This document shows positions 5,284-22,815 of a stretch of DNA of 24,000 bases, piece after piece; the first letter of the stretch is position 1, and each line of letters opens with the position of its first letter. Source of the DNA: an uncultured delta proteobacterium (GTDB lineage: Bacteria; Desulfobacterota; Desulfobacteria; Desulfobacterales; JAFDCJ01). The DNA lies in the NCBI GenBank assembly GCA_963769935.1, contig CAVYNY010000010.1, positions 567,890 through 591,889 on the forward strand. The letters are read 5' to 3'. Made by a program: the position numbers and the translations under genes. The notes beneath the pieces are model-generated. The model made no database searches, was not told where the DNA came from, and saw only the letters and a list, made by a program, of their open reading frames with translations.

Positions 5284-8200
5284 CTAGCTTTTCAATTCGT
5301 TTGCCAATTTCAGGATGCCATCCACGTCAAAATCTTCAGACAGTTGAATGATTTTGTCACAAAAAGGTATCAGAACATTGTCTTCAGACTTCAATTCTTC
5401 GGCGATGGCCGCGGCTTGCATCACATCCCCCATTTCAGCCGCCGCTTTGATGCGATCGGCCGCTTTCTGAGCCAGATTATGCGGTACAACCAGCGTCCCG
5501 CCGCCGATCCTCTCGTTGGTTTTCTTTTCAGCCGTGGGCGCTATGATTTTAACCGCGTCCAGAGCCTGCTCGAGCGCACTTTCCAGTTCTGTTAATTTCC
5601 GGTTCAATTCCTTCTCGGAGGCAGACTTCGCAGTCTGCCCCTTAACAAGTTTTTCCATTGCCACGGCCGCCGCCTGAAGGTCGACGGCGGCCAGATTCCC
5701 GGCCAGCCCCTTCAGGTTGTGGATTAGGCTGTGGGTATGATTAAAATCATTGGCCGCCAAGGCTTCCCGAATTTCGGCGGCGGCGCTGCCGTAGTTGGCG
5801 CCGAAATCAAGCAGCAGCTTGCGGTAAAGGTGTTTGTTGCCCATCAGGCGCGCCAGACCGGCTGCCAGATCGAAGCCCGGCAATGATTCCGGCAGATGAT
5901 CTTCATCCGGCTCCGCCTGAACAGCTCCCGCGGATGCATCACTTGCCGGCGGCCCTACTGAGGCGGTTAAACTTTTTTGAACCACGATTCGCCCCGAAAC
6001 CGGCTTGATCCACTTTTGCAGGGCAGCAAACAGCTGGTCCGGATCAATCGGCTTGGTTACGTGATCGTTCATTCCGGCTGCAAGACTCTTTTGTTCGTCA
6101 CCGGACATGGCATGCGCCGTCATGGCGATAATTGGAAGGCCAAAGGCTAAAGGTGAAAGGCTAAAGGTTTCATCGCGGTATTCTGTCTTGTTTCCGCTAT
6201 CTCCGACTCGCTGTCCTATGTCCTCTGTCTTCTGACCTATGTCTTCTGCTTGCCGCGCCATAGCCCGGAGGGCGACGGCGGGTCCTCTGTCTTCCGCATT
6301 TACACTATGCGCTATGCTCTTTGCGCTAGGCTTTAAATTTTCAGCTTCCCACATCCGGATTTGCCTTGTGGCCGTGTATCCATCCATCACCGGCATCTGA
6401 ACATCCATGAGGACGGCCTCGAATTCCGCTGACTTTACCAGATCGACGGCTTCCTGGCCGTTATTGGCGATGGTGACTGTCAGCCCCGCCCCTTCCAGGA
6501 TCTCTTTGGCCACCTGCTGGTTGATTTCATTATCTTCCACCAGAAGCACCCGGGCTCCATAAATAGCCTTTAGCTGCCCGGCACTCGGTTCATTTGGCCG
6601 GCCGGCCGGAGATATGTCGTGAAGCTCTTTTCCCAGGGCCTGCATGACGGCATCGAACAGCATCGATGAGCTCACCGGCTTGATCAGAAAACCATCCAAT
6701 CCGATTTGATCGGCCTGCCGCATAATGTCTTCCCGACCGTAGGCCGTCACCAGGACGATGGCTGGGATTTTACTCAATTGTTTATGGGTCTTGATGCGCC
6801 CGGCGGCTTCGATGCCGTCCATGCCCGGCATCTTCCAGTCCATGATGACAAGCTCAAACGGTTTATCCCGGTCCACCCGTTCGATTTCCGCCAGGGCCGC
6901 TTGTCCGGAGGCTGCCAGAAAAACTTCGAATGAAAAAGATTCCAGAATTTCCTGCAGAATTTGGCGGGACGTGGCATTGTCATCCACCACCAGCACCTTC
7001 AAGCCTCGGATATCGGGCGACGGCACAAAACGCTTTTTGACCGCATCTTTTCCCAGACCGAAGACGGCCGTAAAATTAAAGGTCGTGCCTTTCCCGGACG
7101 CGCTTTCCACCCAGATCTCGCCGCCCATCAGATTGACCAGGCGCTTGCTGATGGTCAGCCCCAACCCGGTACCGCCGTACTTGCGCGTAGTCGAAGTGTC
7201 GGCCTGGGAGAAGGCCTGGAACAGCTTGGCCTGCTGTTCCGCCGTCATGCCGATGCCCGTATCCCGCACCGAAAACTGAAGGGTAACTTTATCCTCCGAC
7301 CTCATTTTTATCCGGGTGGTCAGCACAATCTCGCCTTGCTCGGTGAATTTTACCGCATTGTTTCCCAGGTTGACCAGGATTTGATTGAGTCTTAACGGAT
7401 CTCCGACCAGGAAGTTGGGCACCCGCGAATCGAGGTAGAACAAAACTTCCAGATTCTTTTTTTCCTGCGCTTTGATGGTGATCACATTGGCGACGTTATC
7501 CACGGTCTCCGATAGATCGAACTCCACGACTTCCATTTCCAGCTTGCCGGCTTCGATTTTTGAGAAATCCAAAATGTCGTTGATGATCCCCAGCAGAGAA
7601 TTGGCCGAAGATTGAATTTTGTTCAAATAATCCTGCTGCTTGGGCGTCAGCTCGGTTTTCAGCGCCAGGTGGGCCATACCGATTACGGCATTCATCGGGG
7701 TGCGGATCTCATGGCTCATGTTGGCCAGAAAATCGCTTTTGGCCCTGGTGGCGGCTTCGGCCTTAACCTTTTCTTCGTCGAGCTTCTCCATTATGTTAAG
7801 CATGGCCGATTGGGCCTCATCCAGTTCTTTAATGCGTTCATGCAGATCGTTCTCCATTTGTTTGCGCTCGGTAATATCCAGAAATGAGGCCAGGACATCA
7901 AGGACATCACCCTTTTCATCGCGCGTGCAGGCAACGGTTATATTGGTATATACGATTGCGCCGTCCTTGCGGATAAAGCGCTTGTCAAGGGTGTAGTTGT
8001 CGATTTGACCGGTCAGCATCCGTTCGAACTGTTTTACATCGGCAGTGAGATCGTCGGGATGGGTAAGCTCGGCCCAAGTCATCTGGCGCAGCTCATCCAG
8101 CGTATAGCCAAACATTCGCTGCAATTGATCATTGGCCTCCACCCATCCTTTGACCGGCGAGGTGATCGCCATTCCGGTCTGGCTATGCTCAAAATAACTG

Positions 8201-10596
8201 CGAAACCGGGCCTCTTTTTCCCGCATGCGCTCCCCCATCAGCTTACCTGCGGTAATGTCACGCAGTGATTCGATGGCACCCGCAACTTCACCGGCCGTAT
8301 TATAAAGCAGGCTGGCGGTCCCGCTGACATACATGCCGTTCTCGCCCAGCGCCGGGTGAAAGGATTCACTGATCAGGATTTCGCCGTCCTTTCTAACCGA
8401 CAGGTATTTCTTTTCATAGGTTGCATCCCAATCTTTTACCAGGTCGATTAAGACGGGGCGTCTTTCGCCGTAAAACGGCAAAGCATATTCATAATTACCC
8501 TTGCCGATCATATCCTCGGCGGGGATATTCAGAAGGTTTTCCATGGCCTTGTTCCAGGCGATCACGATGCCGTCGCAATCGATCACCCAGGTGGGGTCCG
8601 GTAAAAAATCGATAATCTGGGCCAGACGCCGCTGGGATTCCTTGGATGCTTTTTCAGTCCGCTGGCGCTCTTTCACTTCCCTGGCCAAAGTCCTGTTCCA
8701 GCGAAGAATGATAAGCAGAATAATTGCCGAGATCCCCACAGCGGCTGCCGCCACCCGGATGACCAAGCCCCAATCCACCTGTTGCTCAAAGCGGACATTG
8801 ATCCAGCGGTTTTGAATGTCTGTTTTTTCCGAATCCGGGACGGTGCCCAAGCTGATATTCAGGATGTTGACCAGGTCGGGCCAGTCTTTGCGCACCGCAA
8901 AGCGAAGATCATAGGTATCGGGGGTGGTCGTGACAATCTTGAGGTTGCTCAAACCCAATTTCTGCGTGGTATAGGTAATGGAGGCGAGATCGCCCACGAA
9001 GGCGTCTATGTGTTTCCTTGACAGGGCTCGCAGCGCATCCTCGATGTTGTCTGCCAGGTAAAACCTGCGGTTCGGATATTTCTCTAGGAGATATTCCTGA
9101 TTCGCACGATCTCGGACGAGGCCCACGCGACCGTCCTTAAAATCCTTGACAGTATTGCCGAATGGGACATTGTCCCGGGTGAGAATAACTTTGGGAGAAC
9201 TCAGGTAGGGATTTGTGAACAGAAAAACCTGCGACAGCTCCGGGGTCTTCGCCACACAGGGCAAAACGTCAATTTTTCCTGCTCGGGCAGCGTTCATGAC
9301 TTGAGTCCGGCTAAGCCCTTCAACCGGTTGCATGTTTATCTTCAACTGCCGGTTTAAGCGGCGGACATAATCTGCGGCGATTCCCGCAAAGATATGGGCG
9401 GCATCGAAATATTCAAACGGCGGCCGGTCCGGGTCCACACCGAGGCGGATATTTTTGTGCGCTGCCAGCCATGCCTTTTCGTCCACCGTCAGTTCGATGC
9501 TTCTTTGCCGGGGGGCGAGACGGGCCGCAATTTCATTCAGATCAAACTGGTACAGCTTGAGGGTTGGATTTTGGGCTTTGGAGAATTGACGAAAATCCAG
9601 CGATCGCACGGCCTGGGAGGTAAACGGAGCCAGGCTTTGGGCGTTGGCCCGCGTCAGGGCGACCATGGCCGATCCGAACTGCAGCTGTTCATTGGCGAAA
9701 TCGACGCCGTTGAGGTAGTCGAACAACAAGACGACGGCCCAGGCTCCATCCAAAAAGTGTCCTCCCACACTCACCTGCATATGGTCCTGCTGAATGGCTT
9801 CGAGGGCGTCTTTATCCCAATCGACCCCGCCGATGAGGATTTTCCGCTTTAGATGCAGCTCTTGAACAGCCTTCACCACACCCATCGCCATATTGTCGTT
9901 GGCGCACCACACAATGTTCACATTCGAATGCGAGCTGTAATAATCTTTAAATTGGTCATAGGCGGTTTGGCGGTTCCATTTGCCCGCGACAATTTTGAAG
10001 GCATCCAGCCCCTTTAAGTGTTTCAGATATTGGCTAAGGCCTCTCACCCGGTCGATGGAAGACTCATCTTTGGGATTGCCCTCGATGGCAAGCACATCAA
10101 AACGCTCGATGCCTTTTGATCTGGCCTCATTGATCAGTTGCTGAATGAGAAGGGTCCCGGCCTTGACATCATCCGGCAGCACACTGCTGATCCAGTATTC
10201 ATATTTGGTGCGCGGCAGAAGATCCTTTTCCGGCAGTTGGGAATTAATGAGTATGGCGGGCGTTTTATGATCTTCGGCAATCTGCAGGATCCGTTCGCCG
10301 GTGTTTTGGTACGCCAGAAAAATAATGCCGTCAATTCCTCCCCGGACGGCTTCTCTAACCTGCGCCACCATTTTCTCCGGATCGTCGTCGGCGTTAAAGG
10401 CCTGAAGTGTCACTCCCAGATCCGCGGCGGCTTCTTTAGTGAAAAAGACGGCTTTCGTCCAGAAAGGATCGTCGCGAGGGTAAAAAATGGCAACCTTGAA
10501 GTTTTTGGCGTATAGCGGCGGCGGCGCTGCGAGGCCTAAAAGAAGCAAGCATGTAATAAGAATTGAAAAAATGCATGGGGGAGTGAAACGTGCCAT
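5284..10596 (-). CDS. Hybrid sensor histidine kinase, 1770 aa: signal peptide, PBP type-1-like domain, SBP_bac_3-like domain, TM, PAS x2-3, HisKA, HATPase, REC, REC, HPt, C-terminal extension
   Basis: Uninterrupted 5.3-kb ORF. Signal peptide: [30 protein letters not shown]. Sugar-binding-protein-like region: [13 protein letters not shown]...[11 protein letters not shown]. Amino-acid-binding-like region: [16 protein letters not shown]... TM: [23 protein letters not shown]-box: [18 protein letters not shown] boxes: [26 protein letters not shown]1: [24 protein letters not shown]2: [35 protein letters not shown]. HPt: [14 protein letters not shown]. Confidence 0.92.
6136..6345 (-). repeat. In-frame, heptamer-built 70-codon segment in the alpha3-beta4 loop of REC2 of the 1770-aa kinase
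   Basis: It lies between the conserved IRMWE and [10 protein letters not shown] motifs. On the plus strand there are three blocks of 7-nt tandem units. Block 1, 6140-6167: ccaaagg ctaaagg tgaaagg ctaaagg. Block 2, 6183-6252: ten in-phase units including ctgtcct atgtcct ctgtctt ctgacct atgtctt. Block 3, 6303-6330: cactatg cgctatg ctctttg cgctagg. REC1 of the same protein has only 7 residues in this loop. Confidence 0.6.
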
Positions 10597-11144: not shown

Positions 11145-14114
11145 TTATCTTCTCAATTCATCCGCCAATTCCAGGATACCACTCAGGTCAAAATCCTCAG
11201 ACAGTTGAATTATTTTGTCACAAAAAGGTGTGAGACCATTATTTTCAGACTTCAACGTTTTGGCAATCGATGCTATTTGCACCACATCTCCCATTTCAGC
11301 CGCCGCTTTGATGCGATCGGCCAGGTCTCGAGCTATTTCGGGGGCTATACAGGCCATTTCGGATTCGGTGCACGCGACGGTTTTCTTTTCAGACATGGGA
11401 ACCAGGGTTTGAACCGCGTCCAGCGCCTGCCCGAGAGCTTCTTGCAGGTCTGTTAATTTCCGGTTCAATTCTGTATCGGAGGCCGCCTCCCCTGCCCACC
11501 CTTTAACGAGTTTTTCCATTGCCACCGCTGCTGCCTGGAGGTCGACGGCGGCCAGATTTCCGGCCAGCCCCTTCAAGTTGTGAACCAGGCCGTGGGCACG
11601 ATTAAAATCTTTGGCCGCCAATGCCTCACGGATGTCAGCGGCGGCGCCGCAGCAGCTGGCGCCGAAATCAAGCAACAGCTTGCGGTAAAGGCGCTTGTTG
11701 TCCATCAGACGCGCCAGACCCGCCGCCAGATCAAAGCCCGGCAAAGATTCAGGCAGTTCATCTTCATCCGTCTTCGCCTGAACAGCCTGCGCTGGTGCAT
11801 CAGGTACCGGTGACCCTCCTGAGGCGGGCAAACTTTTTGGGTCGACGATCCGCTCTGCAGCCGGTTTGATCCACTTCTGCAGGGCGGCAAACAGCTGGTC
11901 CGGATCAATGGGTTTGGTCACATGATCGTTCATCCCGGCCGCCAAACTCCTCTCCCGATCGCCGGCCATGGCATGGGCCGTCATCGCGATGATAGGAATG
12001 GGATGCTGGATGCTGGATACTGGATACTGGATACTGGTTGGCGGCAGTTCAGAGGACTGAGGACCCGTCTTCGTCGGGGTAAGTGAGGGAATACGCCGCG
12101 GCGAGCTGAGGACCGAGGGTTGGCCCTCGATTTCGGATTTTAAATCAGAATCCTCTCCGACAGTCTTCCTTGTTTTCAATACATCAGTATCCGCGTTAGC
12201 GGAGACTGATTCCCACTTCCGGATCTCCCGTGTGGCTTCAAAACCGTTCATCTCAGGCATCTGTATATCCATGAGCACCACATCGTAGATCCGCTCCTTG
12301 ACCATCGCCGCTGCTTCTTTGCCGTTGTTGGCAATGCTCACCACCAATCCTGCGTTCTCCAGAATCTCCTGCGCCACCTGCTGATTGATCGCATTGTCCT
12401 CCGCCAGCAGCACTTTTGCCCCGCGAATCTTATCAAGCTCCTGCGCCGCATCGGTCCCCGCCCGGGCTTCGCGCTCAAGCTCAGGAACTTCCTTGCCGAA
12501 AGCGGCCATGATCGCGTCAAAAAGCATGGACTGGCTCACGGGTTTGAGGAGAAAACCATCCAAGCCTATTTTCTCGGATATCCGCATGAGCTCTTCACGG
12601 CCATAGGCCGTCACGATGATAATCTTGGGCTTGCGGGGGATGTCGGAATGCCTGTTGATAATTTCGGAAGCCTCAATGCCATCCATCCCCGGCATTTTCC
12701 AGTCCATCACCACCAGCTGATACGGCCGGAGCTTCGCTTCCCTCGCCAGTTCTGCGATGCCCTCCTCCGCCGAGGCTGCCACTGAAACCTCAAAACTCAT
12801 GCTCGCAAGCAGCGTCTGTAGAATCTCACGGGAGGATGCATTGTCGTCCACGACTAAAACCCGCATCCCCTTCAGATCCAGCGACGGCTCCAGGTATCTC
12901 TCCGTCACTCTCCCCGTTAAACCGAATTTTGCGGTGAATATGAAATTGCTGCTCTTGCCGGGTTCGCTCTCAACCCAGATTTCCCCTTTCATCATGTTCA
13001 CCAGGTGCTTGGAGATGGTCAGCCCGAGCCCCGTTCCCCCGAACTTGCGCGTCGTGGACGAATCCGCCTGGGTAAAGGCCTCAAACAGCTTCTGCCTCTG
13101 CTCGGGGGTCACTCCGATCCCCGTGTCGCGAACGGAAAATCGAAGCATCACCCATTGTTCCTCTTTTTCCACCATTTCGGTGGCAAGCACGATCTCTCCG
13201 GCCTCTGTAAACTTCACCGCATTGTTGCACAGGTTGGTCAGCACCTGGCCCAGCCGCAATGGATCCCCCACCAGCGCCATGGGCACCTCCGGCGCCGTAT
13301 CCATCAGGAACTCCAGCTTTTTGTCCTGAGCCTTCACACCGGCAATCGTCGCTACGTTATCCAGGACTTCATCCAAGCCGAAATCCACAGACTCCATGTG
13401 CAGCTTCCCCGCTTCAATCTTGGAAAAATCCAAAATGTCGTTGATGATTCCCAGCAGGGAATTGGCGGAACGCTGGATCTTGTTCAAATAATCCTCTTGC
13501 TTGGGGGTCAAGGCCGTCCGAAGCGCCAAATGAGCCATTCCGATCACGGCATTCATGGGGGTCCGGATCTCATGACTCATGTTGGCCAGAAAATCGCTCT
13601 TGGCTTTTGTGGCGGCCTCGGCCGCCTGCTTGGCGAGGTGCAGTTCCTCAGCTCTGGTTTTTAATTCTTCGTTTTTGGCCTTCAGGTCGTTCAAAAGTTC
13701 CAGCCTGGAGGGACGTGCCAGACTTTGTCTTTGCATTTCGACAAACTCATCCGACAGGTGACCGGCGCTATCCGGCAGATAGCTGAATGTCCTGATTCTG
13801 ACCGTCTTCTGCTCAGTGCGGTCGATTTCAAATGTGTCAAAAAAAAATTTTAAATTCGGCATTGAGATCAATTGCTCAGGGCACTGAAAGGTCATCCATA
13901 GTCCGCTCCGGCCCTCACGCCGGTCAATGCCGACAGAAATTTTTGTGCCCTTGCCGCCCTTTCTTCCCAAGCCGGTGATTTCAGAAACAATCGTTTCCAG
14001 CCGGGTGGCATGAATCGGTTCGCAGCCTAAATCTTCGGCCAGCAAGCGAATCTTTTTCCGCGCCGCAACTCTGGTATTTTCGTTCTTTACCGATAAATTA
14101 CCGAGTTTGATCAT
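11145..14114 (-). CDS. Cytoplasmic hybrid histidine kinase, 989 aa: novel N-terminal domain, coiled coil, HisKA, HATPase, REC, REC, HPt, C-terminal extension. Paralogue of the 1770-aa kinase.
   Basis: Intact ORF with RBS GGAGG and a start that overlaps the rsbX-like stop by 17 nt. No TM segment. H-box [16 protein letters not shown]; [10 protein letters not shown]; DTGIGV; GGTGLGL. REC1: [27 protein letters not shown]2: [35 protein letters not shown]. HPt: [14 protein letters not shown]. From the H-box to the C-terminus it aligns by eye at roughly 70-75% identity with the 1770-aa protein. Confidence 0.92.
12000..12209 (-). repeat. In-frame segment of about 70 codons in the alpha3-beta4 loop of REC2 of the 989-aa kinase, containing a 7-nt tandem array
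   Basis: It lies between IRKWE and (I)[10 protein letters not shown]. Plus strand 12001-12035 reads ggatgct ggatgct ggatact ggatact ggatact, which encodes [13 protein letters not shown]; the repeat is therefore at DNA level, not protein level. The distal end has cagtatcc (12186-12193), complementary to ggatactg. There is an internal hairpin GAGGGttggCCCTC. Confidence 0.6.
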
Positions 14115-14709
14115 GCTTCCTACCTCCCAGATACTTCAGCACAATACAGGATGCGTCATCATTTTCCTTCCAAAATTGCTTGAGCAGCGCGCTGGCGATG
14201 GATTCCGCGGTACCTTTCAGTATTTCCGGACACTCGGAGAGTTCGAAATGCTCCTTAATGCCGTCTGAATGCATAACGAGAACATCTCCAGCCAATAGTT
14301 TCAGGGCTTGCTTTTTGACGGTGGACATCATGTAGCCGACGATTCCATCTCTGGAAACGAATCGAACGGCCCTCGGACCGAGCACCCTTACCACGATGTT
14401 GCCCATACCGACGTAAATCAGCTCGCCTGTCGCGGTGTCCAAACGGCAAATGGCCGCCACGGCGCCCCGCGTGCCCTTGAGACACGTATGCAGACCCTGC
14501 ATAACTTCGACCGGCTCTTTGCGGCAATTCTGTTCCAGATACGTTTGGGCTGTAAGCGCAACATCATGCGCTTCGCGCCCGTGGCCCAGCACATCAACCA
14601 GTGCCAGAAAACACCGGCCGTCAAACTCTTTTATGACCCCCGTGTCGCCGCATTCAGCTTCTCTTCGGGTAAGCGCTCGCTTTACCAGATGGCAGTCCAC
14701 TCTTGACAT
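14098..14709 (-). CDS. rsbX: PP2C/SpoIIE-type serine phosphatase, RsbX-like (about 203 aa)
   Basis: The start is taken at MSRVDCHL (ATG 14709) inside track ORF 14098..14997, because the upstream part of that ORF overlaps the rsbT-like gene. The sequence ECGDTG...ALVDVLGHG...[12 protein letters not shown]...GMGNIVVRV...LVMHSDGI parallels B. subtilis RsbX (..CGDSF..AVADGLGSG..RGATASILK..SVGNVRF..IIHTDGL). Confidence 0.8.
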
Positions 14710-15142
14710 AATCGCCCCACTTCCGTGTTGAAACAACGGTGCCGCGCCCCGGCTGAGACTCGATCCTGAACTCGTCCATAATCCGTTTAACGCTCGGCAA
14801 TCCCAGCCCCAGGCTGCCTTTAGTCGTGCTGAAATTATCCTGCAGCGCCTGTTCGATGTCTCTGATTCCCGGCCCGTCGTCACGGGCAATAATTTCGATG
14901 CCCAAGCGGTTGTTGCGTTGGACAATTCGCAAGGTAAGTTCGCCTTTTTGGGCATAGTTGACGATGTTGGTCGCGAGCTCTGAAGCCGCTGTGGCAATCA
15001 AAAACTGATTGACTTCATCGAAACCGGCCGCAGCAGCCAGGTGTCTCGCCGCTGTAATCACCTGCTCCTTGTCGTTCTGATCGGACAGCAGGATTCGTCT
15101 TTCATTATATTTCGGCGGGGCGGCCCGTTCATTGTTCACCAT
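14654..15142 (-). CDS. rsbT: RsbT-like GHKL serine kinase / switch protein (anti-sigma regulatory factor family)
   Basis: ATG 15142 has an AAGGGG RBS; the track ORF starts at GTG 15157. The start overlaps the rsbS-like stop by 14 nt. The sequence VITAARHLAAAAGFDEVNQFLIATAASELATNIVNYAQKGELTL..IIARDDGPGIRDIEQALQDNFSTTKGSLGLGLPSVKRIMDEF parallels B. subtilis RsbT (ISELARNIYLYAG..AEDQGPGIPD..GFSTSGGLGAGLPGVKRLMDEF). Confidence 0.85.
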   Translation of the reverse strand: MVNNERAAPPKYNERRILLSDQNDKEQVITAARHLAAAAGFDEVNQFLIATAASELATNIVNYAQKGELTLRIVQRNNRLGIEIIARDDGPGIRDIEQALQDNFSTTKGSLGLGLPSVKRIMDEFRIESQPGRGTVVSTRKWGDYVKSGLPSGKASAYPKRS

Positions 15143-15584
15143 CGCTGTCCCCTTCACCGTTTTCTATTACGATGCTATCCGGGTCCTCAGCGTCCTGAAC
15201 CCCCTCCTGAATCGATAAAACGTTTTGGATCTGCTCGAACCCGTCTTCCATGGTCAGGGCCGCACGGATACCATCGATTTCGACCTCCAGATCGATCAGC
15301 GACGATACGACGCCGGGCTGCAGGCCGACGAATACGTTCGCCACCCCCAGCAGCGACGTCATCCGCGCGGTGTCGGCCAGGAATTTGAACGCATGCGAAT
15401 CCAGGGCGCGCACCGTACTAAGGTCCAGTATCATCCCCCGTACTTTCGCTGCTTGAATTTTCTGCAAAATGGCCGTTCGAATTTTCATCAGCGTGTCATC
15501 GTAAAGCTCACCCTGCAAGGTAACCACAAGACAGCCGCGGATGGTGCTCATTGCGGTTTCGCTATCGATCAGCAGGCCTTTCAT
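15129..15584 (-). CDS. rsbS: RsbS-like STAS-domain protein with an acidic C-terminal tail
   Basis: The ATG lies 2 nt after the rsbR-like stop. The sequence CLVVTLQGELYDDTLMKIRTAILQKI..GMILDLSTVRALDSHAFKFLADTARMTSLLGVANVFVGLQPGVVSSLIDLEVE parallels B. subtilis RsbS, including the phosphorylatable Ser context (MIDSFIAK versus ALDSHAFK). Confidence 0.85.
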   Translation of the reverse strand: MKGLLIDSETAMSTIRGCLVVTLQGELYDDTLMKIRTAILQKIQAAKVRGMILDLSTVRALDSHAFKFLADTARMTSLLGVANVFVGLQPGVVSSLIDLEVEIDGIRAALTMEDGFEQIQNVLSIQEGVQDAEDPDSIVIENGEGDSDGEQ

Positions 15585-15586
15585 TA

Positions 15587-16411
15587 TCAGGATTTCCTCC
15601 CCAGGGGCTTGATTTCGCGCACCTCAAAATTCATCATCTTGAACGAATCCTCCAAGGCGTCTCTTAAAGTAGAGTTGGTCTTGACCTCACCCATCTCGAT
15701 TCCCAACTGGACGATCGTACTCGCCACAGCCGGCGAAATCCCGGAAATAATACACTGGCAGCCCATCAGCCGCGTGGCCTTGGTGATCTTGATCAGGTGA
15801 TTGGCCACGGCGGTGTCGACCGCTGCCACGCCCTGGATGTCAAGGATGATTACCTTGGCCGACGTCTCCTTTATTTTGGTCAGCATGGTGTTGGTCATCT
15901 GCTGAGCCCGCATGGAGTCGATCACACCCACCACCGGAAGGACCAGCACCCGGTCCCAGAGTTCGATGGTCGGCGTCGATATCTCCCGGATCGTGCGGCT
16001 TTGTTCTTCCAACCTTTGTTCATCGCGGACCTTCTCGCTGATGTCGAGCATAAATTCCAGACCTCCGATGACATTTCCTTCCGGGTCTTTGAGTGGGACG
16101 GCATAGTATTCAATGTACACGGTTTGATCGCCCATTGGAATCTCATTCCGACCGGACCGAACCTCATAATTCTCTATGGCCTGAAGCATTCGGCAGTCCA
16201 TGGTCTGGCAATGGGCTGAACCAAATAGATCGTAACAGTGCTGTGTTGCGACCTCCTCCCATGACTTGCCGAGGAATTTGCGACCGGCGGCATTCATGTA
16301 AATGATTTCCAAGTCTTTATTCACCGCCATTACCGGGGTAGGAATTTGTTCCAGAATCTGCTCCTGAATTCCAGAATATGCCTGATTTTCTGTTTTGATC
16401 TTTTCGTTCAT
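15587..16411 (-). CDS. rsbR: RsbR-like stressosome sensor: N-terminal Cys/His-rich PAS domain plus C-terminal STAS domain
   Basis: RBS AGGAG. The C-terminus VIILDIQGVAAVDTAVANHLIKITKATRLMGCQCIISGISPAVASTIVQLGIEM closely parallels B. subtilis RsbRA (IDITGVPVVDTMVAHHIIQASEAVRLVGCQAMLVGIRPEIAQTIVNLGIEL). The N-terminus is PAS-like (IPTPVMAVNKDLEIIYMNAAGRKFLG...). Confidence 0.85.
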   Translation of the reverse strand: MNEKIKTENQAYSGIQEQILEQIPTPVMAVNKDLEIIYMNAAGRKFLGKSWEEVATQHCYDLFGSAHCQTMDCRMLQAIENYEVRSGRNEIPMGDQTVYIEYYAVPLKDPEGNVIGGLEFMLDISEKVRDEQRLEEQSRTIREISTPTIELWDRVLVLPVVGVIDSMRAQQMTNTMLTKIKETSAKVIILDIQGVAAVDTAVANHLIKITKATRLMGCQCIISGISPAVASTIVQLGIEMGEVKTNSTLRDALEDSFKMMNFEVREIKPLGRKS

Positions 16412-16481: not shown

Positions 16482-16560
16482 ATCACGAAAATACGAAATA
16501 TAGAAAGCACGAAATTTATCTTATCTTTTTCGTGTTTTCGTCCTTTCGTGCTTTCGTGAT
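16482..16560. repeat. Imperfect 33-nt inverted repeat built of (t)ttcgtg(n) 7-8-mers, between the asmA-like and rsbR-like genes
   Basis: Left arm 16482-16514: atcacgaaaatacgaaatatagaaagcacgaaa. Right arm 16528-16560: tttcgtgt tttcgtcc tttcgtgc tttcgtga t. 26 of 33 positions are complementary, with a 13-nt loop. T-runs flank it on the plus strand only. Confidence 0.6.
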
Positions 16561-16617: not shown

Positions 16618-19600
16618 CTATTGCCCGATGCTGTGGATGTTGCACGGATGGGCTTTATAAGCGCCGAGGTTGACAAAGGGCGCCAACAGTCCGAGCGGGC
16701 CGATCACCAGCGCACTGAGGGCCTTGGCGCCTTTCGATAATAGAGAAAACATATCCGGCCGCACCTTGGGGTCCGTGATCGGGCCGCTGACGCGCAGCTT
16801 GGTCCAAAAGTCCATGAGGCTCGGAAATCTGGGCTCCGGAACGAGCAAAAAATCAACCTGTTCCGTGCCCAGATTGATGTCGCCTTCGCCGGTCAGCACA
16901 CCCGCCTCGGTGTCGAACACGAACGCTTGGCTGGCTGCTATTCCGCTGCTGATATCAAATTGAACGACGGCGCACTTGATTTCTCCGCCTTCGTGGTGGC
17001 TGCCCCAGAAATGAATGACCTTTCTGGTAAGACCCAGCGAAATCAGGTCCAGGTAGTGGGTCAGGTAGCCTTTGCCCATGACGGCCCCCACGCTGCCGTC
17101 CAGACCGGCCATCAGATCATGCAGGGAGCCGCCCCGGCTATTGACATCGACGGCGATATCGAGGTGGGAACGGACCTGCTGGCTGATCCGCAGTCCCCGC
17201 AGAAGTCCGCCGAGGTCAAAGTCCTGGACGAGGAATTTGGCGGCGACCCGGGCCGGCGATTCGGGATAGAGATGGAAGTTGCCGGAAATTCGGGTCTGCT
17301 GGTAAGTCGCCTGAAGCGTTTCGACGTTGAGATCACCGTTCTCGACGGTGAGCATCAGGCGGCCGAACTCAAAGTTTGCATCGCGGGCGCGGACGTTTTT
17401 AGCATTCAGGCTGATGTCTGCGTCCACTTGCTTGAGAATATTTAAAGGCAGCGGATCATCGCTGAATAATCGGCCTTCCAACCTGCCGGGCTCCCTACCG
17501 GGCTCTTTTTCGTCCTGCCTCAGATTTTTCAGCAGCGCCGTCATATCCAGCAGCGAAGATTCCAGTCTCAATGTGATCTTCGGGCGTTCGCGAAACTCAA
17601 CTTTTGCCAGGCCGTTGAAGTCGCTTTTATCGACGACCGCCGTCAAATCGGCCAGGGAAAAAGACCGGGCCGACCCGCTGAGATGTCCGCTGAAATCAAA
17701 GGGGCCCAGTTCGGGGAGGTTGGCGCCGACCAGGGGACCGATCTCGGCCAATTCCTTTCCCCCGGCTTTCAGCCTCAGGTCCATGCCTTCGAGCGCCGGC
17801 AGGTCTTTGATTGTCCCGGTTGCCTCCAGGCTTAAGCTGCCGCGCCGGGCCTCGCCCCGGACCTCCTGCAGGGACAACGCCCCGGCTGAGCCCGCCAGGC
17901 GACCCTGCAGTGAAAACGCATCGGTCGGGGGCAGCTTCTGTCCGACAATTGTCTCAGCCTGGGCCAAGTCCTTGCCGGCCCCTTTCAGTCGCAGATCCAC
18001 ATGCCGAAAGGCGCGCAGGTCCCCAATCTTGCCGGTTACCGTCAGGTTCAGGTCGCCGCGTAGGGCCTGGCCCATAATGTCATGCAAGGACAGCGCCCTG
18101 CCGGAGCCCGTCAGACGGCCCTCCAGAACAAATTCATCCGTCGACGGCAGCTTCTGTGCTATGATCGACTCCGCCTGTGCCAGGTCTTTACCCGTACCCC
18201 TCAGCCACAAATCCACGTAGCGGAAGGCCGGCAGGTCCTCGATCGCACCCTCGACCGTCAGGTTCAGGCTGCCGCGCCGGGCCCGGCCCCGGATATCATG
18301 CAGGGCCAGCGCTCTGCCGGAGCCCGTCAGGCGACCCGCCAATTCAAATTCATCGGTCGAAAGCAGCTTCTGCCCGATGATCGACTCCGCCTGTGCCAAG
18401 TCATGGCCCGTGCCCTTAAGCCGCAGATCCACTTGCCGAAAGGCAGCCAGGTCCCCAATAGCACCTTCGGCCGTCAGGTTCAGGCTGCCGCGATGGGCCC
18501 GGCCCTGAAAATTCTGCAGGGACAGGGCTTTGGCTGAGCCAGTCAGACGACCCTGCAGGGCAAACTCATCGGTCGGCGGCAGCTTTTGACCGACAATCTC
18601 TCCCACCTGCGCCAAGTCCTTGCCCGTACCCTTGAGCTGCAGGTCCACGCCCTGGAAAACAAGCAGGTCCCCGATTGCACCCTCGGCCGCCAGGTTCAGG
18701 CTGCTGCGCCGGGCCTGTCCCCGAACGTCCTGCAGGGACAAGGCCTTGGCCGAACCCGTCAGACGGCCCTCCAGGGAAAACTCATCGGTCGGCGGCAGCT
18801 TCTGACCGACCATCGCTCCCACCTGCGCCAGGTCCTTGCCCGAACCCTTTAGCTGCAGGTCCATGTCCTGCAGCGCCATCAGATTGCCGACTCGACCGCT
18901 GACGGCCAACGCAGCCTCGCCGGCCGACACAGTGCCGCTGATGTTTTCCAGCATAGGAAACCGGCCGGAACCTGCCAAATGTCCGCTGAGATCGAAAGCG
19001 TCCGTCTGCGGCAGCTCTGCACCGATACCACGCCCTAACTCCTGGAGGCTCTTCCCAGCGACGCGAAACTTCAGATCAAGCCCTTGCAAAGCGCGGACCT
19101 CACCGATCGATCCGGCGAGGTTGACGGTTGCGCTCAAAAACCGTCCTGCCAGCTCAAGCGGAAACTGTTCGCCTGATACGATCCGCTGCAGCCGGCCGAT
19201 CCGGCCGGAAAGCGCAACGGGCTGCCCGTTGTAGTCGGCCTGGAGCTTGAGCGCCAGAAAATCAGGATCTGCCCGCCGGGCTATTTCAAGGCCGGCCAGA
19301 TTGAACCGGGTCGTATGGGCCGCTTTCTCATCGCGATAGGTGAGCTTAAGGTTTTCGACCCGGATATCCTCCACCGCGATATGCAGGCGGGTGGGCGGGC
19401 CGGATGGCGATGCAGAGCCGGCAGAGGCTGTAAATTGCCAGTTGCGTTGCCCGGCTGCATTCATCACCAGGACCACATCGACGCCGGATAGCGTAAGATA
19501 CTTCAACTCGACATCACCGAACAACAGCGGCAGGAGCCGGACCTTGGCCTCTATTCGCCGGGCGGTTATCATCTGCGGGTCGGAAGCCCAGGGGGCGTTG

Positions 19601-19818
19601 GCCAAAGCCACTTCCGTGACCATAAGGGCCGGTGATAAACCGAATTTAAGACCCACCTCGCCGCCCAGCGTCAATTCCCGGCCGGTGCGTTCTGCGACCA
19701 TCCGCTCGATCCGCGGCTTGAGCTTGGCGTAGTCGTAGGTGCTCAAAACCAGATAGGCCGCTGCCGCCAAAGCGACAATTAAAGCGGCCCCGACCAATGC
19801 AATCCATTTCCAACGCAT
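16618..19818 (-). CDS. AsmA-family protein (1066 aa) with an expanded internal repeat region
   Basis: Intact ORF. The N-terminal TM anchor and AsmA-type start are MRWKWIALVGAALIVALAAAAYLVLSTYDYAKLKPRIERMVAERTGRELTLGGEVGLKFGLSPALMVTEVALANAPW. The C-terminus is AsmA_2-like (..DLNVETLQATYQQTRISGNFHL.. GGEIKCAVVQFDISSGIA). Confidence 0.85.
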   Translation of the reverse strand: MRWKWIALVGAALIVALAAAAYLVLSTYDYAKLKPRIERMVAERTGRELTLGGEVGLKFGLSPALMVTEVALANAPWASDPQMITARRIEAKVRLLPLLFGDVELKYLTLSGVDVVLVMNAAGQRNWQFTASAGSASPSGPPTRLHIAVEDIRVENLKLTYRDEKAAHTTRFNLAGLEIARRADPDFLALKLQADYNGQPVALSGRIGRLQRIVSGEQFPLELAGRFLSATVNLAGSIGEVRALQGLDLKFRVAGKSLQELGRGIGAELPQTDAFDLSGHLAGSGRFPMLENISGTVSAGEAALAVSGRVGNLMALQDMDLQLKGSGKDLAQVGAMVGQKLPPTDEFSLEGRLTGSAKALSLQDVRGQARRSSLNLAAEGAIGDLLVFQGVDLQLKGTGKDLAQVGEIVGQKLPPTDEFALQGRLTGSAKALSLQNFQGRAHRGSLNLTAEGAIGDLAAFRQVDLRLKGTGHDLAQAESIIGQKLLSTDEFELAGRLTGSGRALALHDIRGRARRGSLNLTVEGAIEDLPAFRYVDLWLRGTGKDLAQAESIIAQKLPSTDEFVLEGRLTGSGRALSLHDIMGQALRGDLNLTVTGKIGDLRAFRHVDLRLKGAGKDLAQAETIVGQKLPPTDAFSLQGRLAGSAGALSLQEVRGEARRGSLSLEATGTIKDLPALEGMDLRLKAGGKELAEIGPLVGANLPELGPFDFSGHLSGSARSFSLADLTAVVDKSDFNGLAKVEFRERPKITLRLESSLLDMTALLKNLRQDEKEPGREPGRLEGRLFSDDPLPLNILKQVDADISLNAKNVRARDANFEFGRLMLTVENGDLNVETLQATYQQTRISGNFHLYPESPARVAAKFLVQDFDLGGLLRGLRISQQVRSHLDIAVDVNSRGGSLHDLMAGLDGSVGAVMGKGYLTHYLDLISLGLTRKVIHFWGSHHEGGEIKCAVVQFDISSGIAASQAFVFDTEAGVLTGEGDINLGTEQVDFLLVPEPRFPSLMDFWTKLRVSGPITDPKVRPDMFSLLSKGAKALSALVIGPLGLLAPFVNLGAYKAHPCNIHSIGQ
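17563..19074 (-). repeat. Coding tandem array, 7 x 216 nt (72 aa); the central five copies are highly similar
   Basis: The protein units start L(Q/R)LKG(S/T)GKDLAQ..GQKLPPTDEF.L.GRLTGS..ALSL....G.A.RGSLNL...G.I.DL..F..VD. They cover aa 249-320, 321-392, 393-464, 465-536, 537-608, 609-680 and 681-752; the first and last are degenerate. At DNA level, neighbouring central copies (17779-18858) are about 90% identical by eye over stretches such as actcatcggtcggcggcagcttctgaccgac. Confidence 0.85.
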
Positions 19819-19986: not shown

Positions 19987-20005
19987 TAGCGAAATATGTG
20001 CCAAT
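19987..20005 (-). promoter_or_regulatory. Predicted sigma-54 (-24/-12) promoter P1 upstream of the asmA-like gene
   Basis: Minus strand reads ATTGGCACATATTTCGCTA: TGGCAC at 20003..19998 and the -12 GC at 19990..19989, with canonical spacing. It is about 170 nt upstream of ATG 19818 and directly downstream of the sigma-54 activator gene. Confidence 0.6.
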
Positions 20006-20136: not shown

Positions 20137-22815
20137 TCACTTGGCGGGGCGCCGGATGCCCAGTTTTTTTATCTTCGACTGCAGGGTGGTGCGCTTGAGA
20201 CCCAGAATCTCCGCGGCACCGCCCTGTCCTGTAAGGCGCCAGCCGCTTTTCTCCAGAACGCCCAGGATGTGCCGGCGTTCGGCATCCGCCAGGCTGAGAT
20301 TCGCGGGGATATCGGAAGACGCCGTCCGGGGTGCGCTGACGTCCAGGGATTTGCCGCTGCTCACAATCATGGCGTGCTCGACGACATTTCGCAGCTCCCG
20401 GGCGTTGCCCGGCCAGAGGTAATGCTGCAGGTCTTCCATGCTTTTGCGCGGGATGTGGTCGATGCGCTTGCCCATCTTTTTTTCATACTGCCTGACAAAG
20501 GCCCAGACCAGCAGGGGAATATCCTCCGGCCGTTCCCGCAGCGGCGGCACGGCTATGGGAAACACATTCAACCGGTAATACAGGTCCTTTCTGAATTTTG
20601 CTTCGGCCACATCGCGGGCCAGATCCCGGTTGGTGGCCGCGATGATGCGCACGTTCACCTGCAGCGGCTTGGTGGATCCCAGACGCTCGAACCGGCCTTG
20701 TTCCAGCACCCGCAGCAGCTTGGCCTGCACATCCTGCGGCAGATCCCCGATCTCGTCCAGAAACAGCGTGGCCCCGTCGGCCACCTCGAAACGGCCCGTC
20801 ATCCGGGTCAGCGCACCGGTATAAGCACCTTTTTCACGGCCGAAAAGCTCGCTTTCGATCAGCGTGGGCGGCAGCGAGGCACAGTTGACGGTCACCAGGG
20901 ACCGGTCCTTGCGGGCGCTCAGTCGATGCACGGCCCGGGCCAGAAGCTCCTTGCCGGTGCCCGTTTCCCCCTCGATCAGGACGGTGGTATCCGTCCGGGC
21001 CACCTGCTCGACCTGGGCCAGAATCGCCTTCAGGGCACGGCTGCGGCCGACAATCTCCTCGTGCACATTCTGCAGCTCGATCTCTTCCCGCAGGTAGATG
21101 TTCTCCTTTTCCAGCTGCCGCTTGAGGCCTTCGATCTCCTCGAGTCTCACCTGCAGCTGTTCTTCCATCTGCTTGCGCTCGGAGATATCAATGGATACAC
21201 CCATCAGGCGTTCCGACTCCCCTGACGGACTAAAATAGGGACGGCCGCGACCGGCCATCCACCTGATAGTACCGTCGGGGCGGATGATGCGGTATTCCTC
21301 TCGAAAATCAGCCCGCGTCCGTTTGCACTCTTCTACGCTCCTGCGAATCCGAGCGCGGTCTTCCGGATCGACGATTTGCATGAAACCCTCGAAATTCAGC
21401 TCCTGCCCCGGGGCAAATCCATATAATTCCCTGGTTTTTTCGGTGCCCCAAATACGTCCGTTGGAAGTTTCTAAATTCCACAGGCCGGCTTCCGCAGAAG
21501 TGGCGGCCAGATTTAGGCGCGCCTCGCTTTCGCGCAACGCTTCCTCCGAGCGCTTGCGATCGAGCGCGGCGGCAAATACGGCCACGATGAGACTCATCCG
21601 CTGTACCAAATCCACCGGCCAGATCCGCTCCGCACGCACCGCCACTAGTGCGCAGGATCCCAGCGTCCTGCCTCCACTTAACATGGGAATTGAAAGCAAC
21701 GATTTCATGCCCTTGACCCGACAAAGGCGCCGCTCCCCTTCGGCTTCAGCCGGCAGGTCTTCCAGCCGATCGACCACCACCAAATTACCTTGCCGTAATT
21801 GCGCGATGTACCATGGCAATTGATGCTGCGAAAGGAAAACAGGCGCGGGCTCGATCCCTTCCAGATGATATTCAAATGCGCTTTGCAACCGAGCCCCGTC
21901 TTCGGTAAATATTCCTATGGAACACCGGTCCGCATCGAAAAATTCGGTGATGCGCTGGAGCCACTTATTGATTTCGCCTTCGACTTTATCGGTCGAAATG
22001 TTCACAAATCCGGCCGAAAGATCGGATATTAACTCCTCAAACCGCAGTCGATCCGCCGACTGCTGCCGTGTCTGGGCAAGCTGCAGGGTGTTTACAAGGA
22101 TCTCTCCCAGCAGGCGCAGCCGCGGAATATAATCTTCAGGCCAGGCACATTCTTTACGGACCGCATTTATGGAAATGATGTAATCCAATGAGGCACCGAC
22201 GGTGATCGGGATGTTCAGAGCGGATCGAATTTCCAATCTCTCGTATGTTTGCCGGTCGACCGCGGCCTCGCCCGGCAGCTCATCGCGTGTGGTGAAGGAG
22301 ACGACTTCATGCCGCTGAATAATTTTCTCGTAGACCCAGGGAAACAACATGAGGGAAAGGTCGGCATTTTCCGGTACGGGGGAAACCTCAGAGGCATACG
22401 CGACATGGGTGATCCGAAATGAAGTATCGATCGGTGAAATCCGGACCAGGCCGCAGCGGTCCACCTGGAAAAAATCGAGTATCTGCGTCAGGGCACTTCG
22501 AATTTGGTGATCGACCTGGTCAGGAGCCAAGTTGATAAATCGGGCCGAAAGGTCTGACAACAGCCGCTCAAATTGCAGGCGTTCTTTGAGGCCCACCTCG
22601 GCCAGTTTGCGCTGTTCGATTTCCCGATTCAGGCGTTCGCGGACGGCAGCCAATTGCTCTTTTGCTCCGGCCGAATCCACCGCCAGTGCTTTTACGGGCC
22701 GGGCCGGGCCCGCGTGCGACCGCAGCAGAGCTTCCCCGGCCCGCCGGCTGTCTGCATTTTTCTGCGCATATTGCCGGCGATTGGTTTTTGCATTTTCCAG
22801 TCGGTCGTTGACCAT
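20137..22815 (-). CDS. Sigma-54-dependent transcriptional activator (bEBP), 892 aa: GAF-like x2, PAS, AAA+ sigma-54 interaction domain, Fis-type HTH; no receiver domain
   Basis: RBS AAGGAGG. Walker A: [14 protein letters not shown] variant: EKGAYTGA. Also present: [56 protein letters not shown]-terminal HTH: [21 protein letters not shown]. The motif L.FE.L(L/I)SDLSA.F(I/V)N occurs twice and precedes the two GAF-like modules. Confidence 0.92.

Follow-up and report, generated by a model that had tools for sequence, protein, structure and literature searches.

The closest described relatives of the system studied here are the stressosome operons of vibrios. A two-component system downstream of the stressosome operon of Vibrio vulnificus was already pointed out in 2012 (PMC3360785), and Heinz et al. 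(2022) described RsbR-RsbS-RsbT-RsbX (RSTX) modules with a globin-type RsbR, in which RsbX comes right after RsbT and is followed within a few bases by PP2C, cyclic di-GMP or HisKA/REC/HPt proteins (PMC9237108). Most RSTX outputs lack RsbU_N, the receiver domain of Bacillus subtilis RsbU, and an interaction between V. vulnificus RsbT (VvRsbT) and its output VvD1 went undetected (PMC9237108). Baral et al. have proposed that receiver, helical linker and dimeric effector make up a general design with exchangeable parts, found in RsbU as well as in histidine kinases and GGDEF enzymes (PMC12143880). Here, we analyzed a stretch of 24,000 nucleotides (nt), hereafter the window, from contig CAVYNY010000010.1 of an uncultured delta proteobacterium, in which an RSTX module is directly followed by the gene for a soluble hybrid histidine kinase. 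A preliminary description of this DNA had called the mechanism by which RsbT addresses a histidine kinase unresolved, in agreement with PMC9237108, where the transmission mechanism is called open. Stressosome-to-output transmission outside the Firmicutes is an explicitly open question, to which the N-terminal domain of this kinase (residues 1-136, here called HKN) suggests a testable answer. HKN is the most informative part of the locus and very probably the domain on which the module acts to control the kinase.

The open reading frame (ORF) listing and independent gene calls, taken from the source metagenome contig (ENA ERZ25039495 contig_97174), concur on all five minus-strand genes between 16411 and 11145 (coordinates are window positions throughout; aa, amino acids):

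16411..15587, minus strand, rsbR-like gene, 274 aa
15584..15129, minus strand, rsbS-like gene, 151 aa
15142..14654, minus strand, rsbT-like gene, 162 aa
14709..14098, minus strand, rsbX-like gene, 203 aa
14114..11145, minus strand, hybrid histidine kinase gene, 989 aa

The junctions given in the preliminary description proved exact, with a 2-nt gap between rsbR and rsbS and overlaps of 14 nt (rsbS/rsbT), 56 nt (rsbT/rsbX) and 17 nt (rsbX/kinase). A purine-rich, Shine-Dalgarno-like stretch precedes each start codon and is located within the preceding gene. The arrangement is best explained as one operon, composed of a Vibrio-type RsbR-RsbS-RsbT-RsbX module and a dedicated output, the soluble hybrid histidine kinase.

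The preliminary description had credited the kinase with no classical sensor domain. This is literally true, but residues 1-136 form a conserved folded domain that had been missed:

13707..14114, minus strand, HKN, N-terminal domain of the kinase (aa 1-136), an RsbT-like GHKL pseudokinase

No Pfam or NCBIfam model matched kinase residues 1-155, even at lax thresholds (E<=0.1 to 10), and the N-terminal region of six relatives likewise had no Pfam match. Word-index protein searches with the window HKN, a 49-sequence HKN alignment or the HKN of Vibrio aquimaris gave nothing useful, and the family emerged only when kinase residues 1-150 were compared exhaustively, by phmmer, with 1.8 billion cluster representatives. 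This search yielded 188 cluster representatives at E<=1e-3, 71 of them at E<=1e-10, in nearly all of which the match lay at residues 1-150 of host proteins 400-1350 aa long. The public names of the members are generic: 'PAS domain S-box protein', 'hybrid sensor histidine kinase' or 'response regulator'.

We then modeled the fold of HKN with AlphaFold2, using the 49-sequence alignment. The model was confident (predicted local distance difference test [pLDDT] 87.6, predicted template modelling score [pTM] 0.81) and showed the order beta1, alpha1, alpha2, beta2, beta3, short helix, beta4, beta5 and two C-terminal helices. When this model was compared with the PDB using Foldseek, the top 15 matches were all partner-switching anti-sigma serine kinases, namely SpoIIAB, RsbW and UsfX, then SiaB, with E values from 1e-4 to 4e-2 and probabilities of 0.99-1.00. 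An RsbU_N identity for the kinase N-terminus was discarded, as there was no Pfam match and the model is an alpha/beta GHKL fold, not a four-helix bundle of the kind that binds RsbT in outputs such as RsbU, MtG and NreB-like kinases.

At the sequence level, the nearest relative of HKN is encoded in the same operon. Profile alignment (hhalign) of the HKN family with the co-encoded RsbT gave 97.3% and an E value of 2.6e-11 over 108 columns (HKN 6-113 with RsbT 16-143), and the HKN hidden Markov model (HMM) matched the window RsbT at 2e-8 and did not match the catalytic and ATP-binding (CA) domain of the kinase. The idea that HKN is a copy of the kinase's own CA domain was rejected on this basis (hhalign 13%, compared with 97% for RsbT). 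The N-box Asn column is unconserved in HKN (I, S, L, A or R), the stretch opposite RsbT G1-G2 is about 20 residues shorter with both motifs missing, and the ATP lid is lost; HKN is therefore a pseudokinase relative and cannot be a kinase. Judged from these sequence features, HKN is an RsbT paralogue that is predicted to be no longer able to bind ATP and has become fused to an output enzyme.

We also looked at the neighbours of HKN genes. Loci (given L numbers below) were retrieved by HKN peptide patterns alone, 12 from reference genomes or metagenome-assembled genomes (MAGs) and nine from metagenomes, and since retrieval went through HKN alone, the sample was unbiased as to neighbours. L011 was left out as uninformative because it had only 17 nt of upstream DNA. 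In all 20 of the 20 informative loci, the gene directly upstream of HKN was rsbX or, where rsbX was missing, rsbT; the latter was the case in L002 and L009, in which rsbT stood directly before the HKN gene. In L005, the RsbX C-terminus was encoded in the first 150 nt, and wherever the contig reached far enough, rsbS and rsbR lay further upstream. The contigs were labeled, as deposited, Nitrospira, Desulfobacterales, Dehalococcoidia, Atribacteria, Marinifilum and Thalassospira, together with one Methanomicrobia bin. The overlap of the rsbX stop with the HKN start measured 4 nt (ATGA) in 11 loci and 8 nt in two; in L016, as in the window, it was 17 nt. In every informative relative the kinase was syntenic with rsbRSTX, so that a loss of this synteny, which the preliminary description had named as a refuting outcome, was not seen.

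Within the subfamily of the window (L015, L017, L019 and L020), the PAS-type RsbR is retained as well (1e-105 to 1e-147). The same arrangement was also found by tblastn against annotated plasmid/chromid records in the cultured Vibrio aquimaris THAF100 (L023), on pTHAF100_a (NZ_CP045351.1, ~965-971.7 kb), where the order is a PAS-type RsbR (PAS-PAS), RsbS, RsbT, RsbX, an HKN-hybrid kinase (HKN HMM E value 1e-36) and a REC protein. V. aquimaris THAF100 therefore represents a cultured, tractable host with the same layout; the PLSDB gene table lists no features at this locus. A complete RsbR-S-T-X-HKN-kinase locus was also present on a 127-kb contig (L007, JAUVXU010000004.1) binned as a Methanomicrobia archaeon, which represents either an archaeal stressosome or a binning error.

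These data bear on the simplest rival explanation, in which there is no direct coupling, HKN being a dimerisation domain or a sensor for an unknown ligand and the kinase being merely co-transcribed with the module or acting upstream of it. The kinase does have its own Shine-Dalgarno sequence, hybrid kinases are able to integrate other inputs, and the interaction of HKN with the module is a proposed one. Nevertheless, HKN is found directly after rsbT or rsbX in 20 of 20 loci from several phyla whatever the effector, the start/stop overlap of rsbX and HKN is conserved, and HKN is paralogous to RsbT specifically, all of which make such an explanation highly improbable. Together, the best reading of these results is that HKN functionally replaces RsbU_N as the stressosome-coupling domain.

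The range of effectors was assessed using Pfam on 79 full-length HKN members. As with RsbU_N, a single N-terminal domain precedes a variety of outputs. HisKA was present in 67 of the 79, REC in 29, HPt in 17 and PAS in approximately 19, while SpoIIE/PP2C was found in 6, GGDEF in 2, an adenylate/guanylate cyclase domain in 2 and EAL and HD in 1 each. Motif reading of individual translations gave HKN-GGDEF-EAL in Thalassospira (L008), HKN-PAS-GAF-GGDEF-HD in a Dehalococcoidia MAG (L006) and HKN-PP2C-HATPase_c_2 in L012 (4438-7665), the last being the layout of RsbU with HKN replacing RsbU_N. RsbT and RsbX of L012 share one stop-to-stop frame. One 552-aa member, P0003, carries tandem HKN domains (residues 1-131 and 122-272) ahead of HisKA-HATPase, which hints that HKN domains could pair with each other.

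We also examined how HKN is joined to the transmitter. In an AlphaFold2 model of kinase residues 1-410 (pLDDT 89.1), a single unbroken helix, assigned with DSSP, begins at the conserved S136-R-x-E-L motif and enters helix 1 of the dimerization and histidine phosphotransfer (DHp) domain, which bears His181:

13521..13706, minus strand, continuous helix (kinase aa 137-198), from AlphaFold2 and DSSP

HKN, this helix and a dimeric effector have the same layout as the design of Baral et al. (PMC12143880). Such a layout would be compatible with an RsbU-like logic, whereby RsbT freed by stress binds HKN (as a GHKL heterodimer, or through HKN plus the linker), rigidifies helix 137-198 and switches the kinase on. 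The arrangement of N-terminal domain, helical linker and effector matches the linker-rigidification model for RsbT and RsbU, which was extended in the same work to histidine kinases and GGDEF proteins (PMC12143880); the helix is continuous in our model, the L012 PP2C protein has HKN in the place of RsbU_N, the SpoIIAB/RsbW-fold anti-sigma kinases that are the nearest folds to HKN are dimers, and P0003 is a natural tandem HKN-HKN protein. Set against this are the negative two-hybrid result for VvRsbT and VvD1 (PMC9237108), which is relevant only if VvD1 carries HKN, and the fact that dimerisation is established for SpoIIAB and RsbW rather than for RsbT. It also leaves unexplained the conserved basic residues on helix alpha1, which are typical of a STAS- or partner-binding face. 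We regard direct binding of RsbT to HKN as the main rival to the STAS docking proposed below and as somewhat less likely than it.

Conservation of individual residues was counted over 135 HKN family sequences. Near-invariant positions were R19, K21, R38, S44, E45, F92, D93 and S/T136-R-x-E-L. The basic residues of helix alpha1 are prominent among these, R19 being present in 130/135 and K21 in 127/135 sequences, with R23 common. When alignments were chained, SpoIIAB R20, which contacts both SpoIIAA and sigma-F, came to lie no more than one residue away from R19. In B. subtilis RsbT, the alpha1 residues R19, R23 and N24 have been implicated in binding the partner RsbU (PMC12143880).

Of the mechanisms considered, we favour the following scheme, in which the partner of HKN, the direction of its effect and the physiological signal are inferred. 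As in the characterized family, RsbR, with its PAS sensor and Cys3-His motif, and RsbS would build the STAS core, whose STAS domains would be phosphorylated by RsbT, the active serine kinase, and reset by RsbX. Stressosome cores of RsbR and RsbS are pseudo-icosahedral assemblies of ~1.5-1.8 MDa that sequester RsbT. HKN would retain the ancestral docking of RsbT on the unphosphorylated STAS domains of RsbS/RsbR, and the kinase dimer would itself be a stressosome client. Upon activation of the sensor, RsbT would phosphorylate the STAS Ser/Thr residues and HKN would be released or change its pairing; helix 137-198 would then repack, and autophosphorylation together with the phosphorelay from His181 via Asp471/Asp616 to His845 would change state. 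RsbX would reverse the switch, such that RsbT would act as the writer of STAS phosphorylation, RsbX as its eraser and HKN as its reader. The simplest evolutionary route would be that rsbT was duplicated, that fusion of one copy to the downstream effector tethered this effector to RsbS/RsbR and that the fused copy then lost catalysis. This specific STAS-docking mode is put forward tentatively and with less assurance than the role of HKN as the coupling domain. In the same provisional spirit, HKN could represent a second, widespread class of stressosome receiver besides RsbU_N, one that docks the effector on the STAS lattice and reads its phosphorylation state. If so, RsbT need never bind the output, and the failed Vibrio screens for RsbT-output interaction would be explained; the reported lack of detectable VvRsbT-VvD1 binding fits a STAS-docking output, provided that VvD1 carries HKN.

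A different use of the conserved residues is conceivable, namely a transient kinase-substrate relay in which RsbT phosphorylates the output kinase, either at the helix N-cap S/T136 or at another Ser/Thr of HKN, and HKN mainly serves as the recognition element. Where an output lacks RsbU_N, phosphorylation by RsbT is what Heinz et al. suggest (PMC9237108). A Ser/Thr is kept at position 136 in 130/135 HKN sequences (L140 in 122/135), S44, T37 and T41 are highly conserved, and RsbT is catalytically intact by sequence in all loci. However, S44 lies within an S-E-L motif shared with RsbT and is thus probably structural, and a Ser/Thr at the N-cap is common in helices. Moreover, the known targets of RsbT-type kinases are STAS folds, phosphorylated at a D-S/T motif that is missing from HKN, and a relay leaves unexplained why the receiver is a paralogue of RsbT. 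Such a relay therefore appears improbable to us.

Several observations weigh against STAS docking itself. In SpoIIAB-SpoIIAA complexes (1TH8/1TID), the ATP lid contributes to the STAS interface, and HKN has no lid. Unless HKN and RsbT favour different STAS domains, they would be rivals for one set of binding sites. The RsbS of L012 reads MDFEDF at the phosphorylation position and thus has no Ser/Thr despite the presence of HKN, and rsbX is missing from L002 and L009; phospho-release therefore cannot be a full account for all lineages. A mechanism based on dimerisation would explain the tandem HKN domains of P0003 at least equally well. Finally, the window HKN has Gly48 (13971-13973) where 107/135 members have Arg, possibly a substitution particular to this lineage at the putative binding face. 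L015, the closest full-length relative of the window kinase (64% identical), has Arg at HKN position 48.

We next turned to the four small genes of the module. The RsbR, RsbS, RsbT and RsbX assignments of the preliminary description were borne out by profile (Pfam) and PDB sequence searches, and the genes form a genuine RSTX module. None of the four proteins matched an NCBIfam equivalog. RsbR, the co-antagonist, comprises two domains:

16025-16363, minus strand, PAS sensor of RsbR (aa 17-129), Pfam PAS_4 7e-15
15656-15964, minus strand, STAS domain of RsbR (aa 150-252), Pfam STAS 8e-16, preceded by a linker helix

Against the PDB, the linker and STAS domain matched the V. vulnificus stressosome RsbR (7o0i_B, 9e-49) and Listeria RsbR (3e-27), and the threonines T200 and T232 (V-D-T and A-x-T) are in register with those of both. 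The PAS domain had no sequence relatives in the PDB. It contains the motif C59-x7-H67-C68-x4-C73 (aa 59-73; 16193-16237, minus strand), which is kept in 5/5 unique orthologues with a PAS-type RsbR (L015, L017, L019, L020 and the window). This C-x7-HC-x4-C motif may be a metal, Fe-S or redox-sensing site that defines the input signal, and its conservation suggests a redox or metal input to the stressosome.

RsbS, the antagonist, is a single STAS domain (Pfam STAS 2e-11), with best PDB matches to the RsbS of Listeria (6qcm, 7e-18), B. subtilis (6jhk, 3e-17), Moorella (MtS, 2e-13) and V. vulnificus (8e-12). Its Ser63, in a D-S motif, aligns with the phospho-Ser of Listeria and B. subtilis RsbS. 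We also noticed an acidic C-terminal tail of 29 aa (aa 123-151, 15129-15218) with 10 D/E and 0 K/R. Among unique HKN-linked RsbS proteins, 12/14 have a similar acidic tail of 25-38 aa; L004 and the solved RsbS chains (115-123 aa) have none, and V. aquimaris apparently lacks one too. The tail could pair electrostatically with the basic alpha1 surface of HKN or with that of RsbT.

RsbT, the switch serine kinase, is an HATPase_c_2 protein (Pfam 9e-13) of the GHKL fold with intact boxes (E55, N59, D88-x-G-x-G and G112-x-G114). The N, G1 and G2 boxes align with those of SpoIIAB (PDB, 2.5e-8), and 17/17 distinct RsbT sequences of the related loci agree in every catalytic column. Since no RsbT protein in the PDB matched the window RsbT at E<=0.001, its orthology is drawn from context and family. 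RsbX, the feedback phosphatase, consists of a SpoIIE/PP2C domain alone (Pfam 2e-12), with no RsbU_N domain, and resembles Moorella MtX (3zt9, 1e-21) and B. subtilis RsbX (3w40, 3e-8) in the PDB. The alignment with MtX starts at residue 11 of either protein, in favour of a start at the ATG of 14709 and, with it, of the 56-nt overlap with rsbT.

Downstream of HKN, the kinase is, as previously described, a soluble protein with a REC-REC-HPt architecture in Pfam; when 19-residue hydrophobicity windows were scanned, none of the five proteins showed a transmembrane (TM)-grade segment, the maximum for the kinase being 1.33 on the Kyte-Doolittle scale. Its domains are as follows:

11145..13604, minus strand, transmitter and phosphorelay part of the kinase (Pfam)
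kinase aa 171-236, HisKA, with H181 in the H-box SHEIRTP that starts at residue 180
kinase aa 283-396, HATPase_c, with G1 (DTGIG) at 330 and G2 at 360
kinase aa 419-535, REC1, with D471
kinase aa 567-750, REC2, with D616, interrupted by a low-complexity insertion of ~70 aa
kinase aa 814-898, HPt, with H845

The catalytic and phospho-accepting set is therefore complete (H181, G1, G2, D471, D616 and H845). C-terminal to HPt is a conserved tail of ~90 aa with no Pfam match. Orthology to BarA or TorS was rejected, as the NCBIfam scores were 507 bits against a cut-off of 890 for BarA and 433 against 676 for TorS. Unlike kinases of the BarA/TorS/ArcB type, this kinase has no membrane or periplasmic sensor, in keeping with the lack of a TM segment.

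A second hybrid kinase of 1770 aa lies downstream (5284-10596) and is a membrane protein with two periplasmic binding domains, TM segments and 2 PAS domains. From DHp onward it is a paralogue of the stressosome kinase (60% amino-acid identity), and both share the ~70-aa low-complexity REC2 insertion and the ~90-aa post-HPt tail that has no Pfam match. The last ~850 nt of the two genes are 80% identical at the nucleotide level, which suggests recent duplication or gene conversion. This paralogy hints that both kinases would feed one common response regulator; a response-regulator gene was found neither in the window nor in the extended contig.

Elsewhere, the 24-kb window contains no further STAS, GHKL Ser-kinase or PP2C ORF, in agreement with the earlier statement that sigma-B, RsbU, RsbV and RsbW are missing. 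Its other large ORFs, which encode an AsmA-like protein, a GAF-PAS sigma-54 activator, endonuclease III, a DUF1254 protein and the 1770-aa kinase, showed no sigma-factor or Rsb-type domain in Pfam. The preliminary description had taken the AsmA-like gene and a sigma-54 promoter as a hint of an envelope or redox stress circuit. Since neither AsmA nor an enhancer-binding protein adjoins the module in any related locus, the envelope-stress hint has no comparative support. The sigma-54-like sequence TGGCACATATTTCGC (one mismatch; 19989-20003, minus strand) lies between the gene for the GAF-PAS sigma-54 activator (22815..20137) and asmA (19818..16618), such that it would drive asmA and not necessarily rsbR. 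Chance alone would give about 1.9 matches of this kind per window, and one was seen.

In the 206-nt spacer between asmA and rsbR, a window scan found no sigma-54 site, and scans for sigma-70 promoters and terminators gave nothing convincing. The spacer does contain one repeat:

16482..16560, minus strand, imperfect inverted repeat of 79 nt built of CACGAAA units

This repeat holds 5/7 of the window's CACGAAA copies and folds as RNA at -29.4 kcal/mol (z -4.65). Bordered by A-runs on the sense strand, it does not have the form of a canonical asmA terminator, and it may instead be a regulator-binding array or a structured leader upstream of the operon.

How new is this system? The preliminary description had regarded the combination of module and kinase as a distinct configuration, a view that we do not share, since RSTX modules with HisKA/REC/HPt phosphorelays and other outputs have already been catalogued (PMC9237108, with 11 downstream architectures in its Fig. 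3). The operon is a further member of this known class, and it is the identification of HKN that represents a new variant in the coupling between module and output. No earlier description of an RsbT-like or pseudokinase receiver was found in a full-text literature search, Pfam, NCBIfam or the source annotations, a coverage that did not extend to InterPro or Pané-Farré 2005; if HKN has already been described elsewhere, the locus is merely one more member of the known RSTX-two-component class. A shared RsbT-like pseudokinase, strictly linked to rsbT/rsbX across several phyla, turns the open question of stressosome output into defined experiments. In addition, an HKN sequence model could annotate roughly 190 protein clusters that are now labeled only 'histidine kinase' or 'response regulator'.

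Compared with known systems, HKN is closest in fold to SpoIIAB, RsbW, UsfX and SiaB, with which it shares the beta-alpha-alpha-beta-beta ... beta-beta core and a conserved basic residue on alpha1. It differs from these in being a domain of a larger enzyme, not a free protein, and in its loss of the N-box Asn, G1, G2 and lid. The MtR-MtS-MtT-MtX-MtG system of Moorella thermoacetica (Quin 2012, as cited in PMC4976288 and PMC12143880) is likewise of the RSTX type with a non-sigma output, a GGDEF cyclase; the window RsbX is closest to MtX (1e-21), and some HKN members carry GGDEF. MtG, however, uses RsbU_N (PMC12143880), whereas the window kinase uses HKN.

Like the RsbRST-RsbU system of B. subtilis (PMC12143880), the locus consists of a module followed by an effector that is made up of an N-terminal receiver, a long helical linker and a dimeric catalytic domain, and HKN, too, can precede PP2C (L012; SpoIIE in 6/79 members). 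The receivers themselves are unlike, RsbU_N being a four-helix bundle and HKN an alpha/beta GHKL fold homologous to RsbT. In addition, the window effector is a histidine kinase, there is no sigma-factor branch, and RsbX precedes the effector and does not stand at the operon end.

The greatest resemblance is to the RsbRSTX modules with VvD1/VvD2 of V. vulnificus and V. brasiliensis (PMC9237108, PMC4976288). These have the same R-S-T-X order with RsbX directly after RsbT, the same lack of RsbU, RsbV, RsbW and SigB and a two-component output a few bases downstream; the linker and STAS domain of the window RsbR match VvRsbR at 9e-49, and V. aquimaris shares the layout of PAS-RsbR and HKN-hybrid kinase. 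In contrast to their haem globin, the sensor in the window is a Cys-rich PAS domain, and its output is a REC-REC-HPt hybrid kinase. Finally, no recognizable RsbT-receiver domain is reported for the published outputs, whereas the N-terminus of the window kinase is identified here as an RsbT-like pseudokinase.

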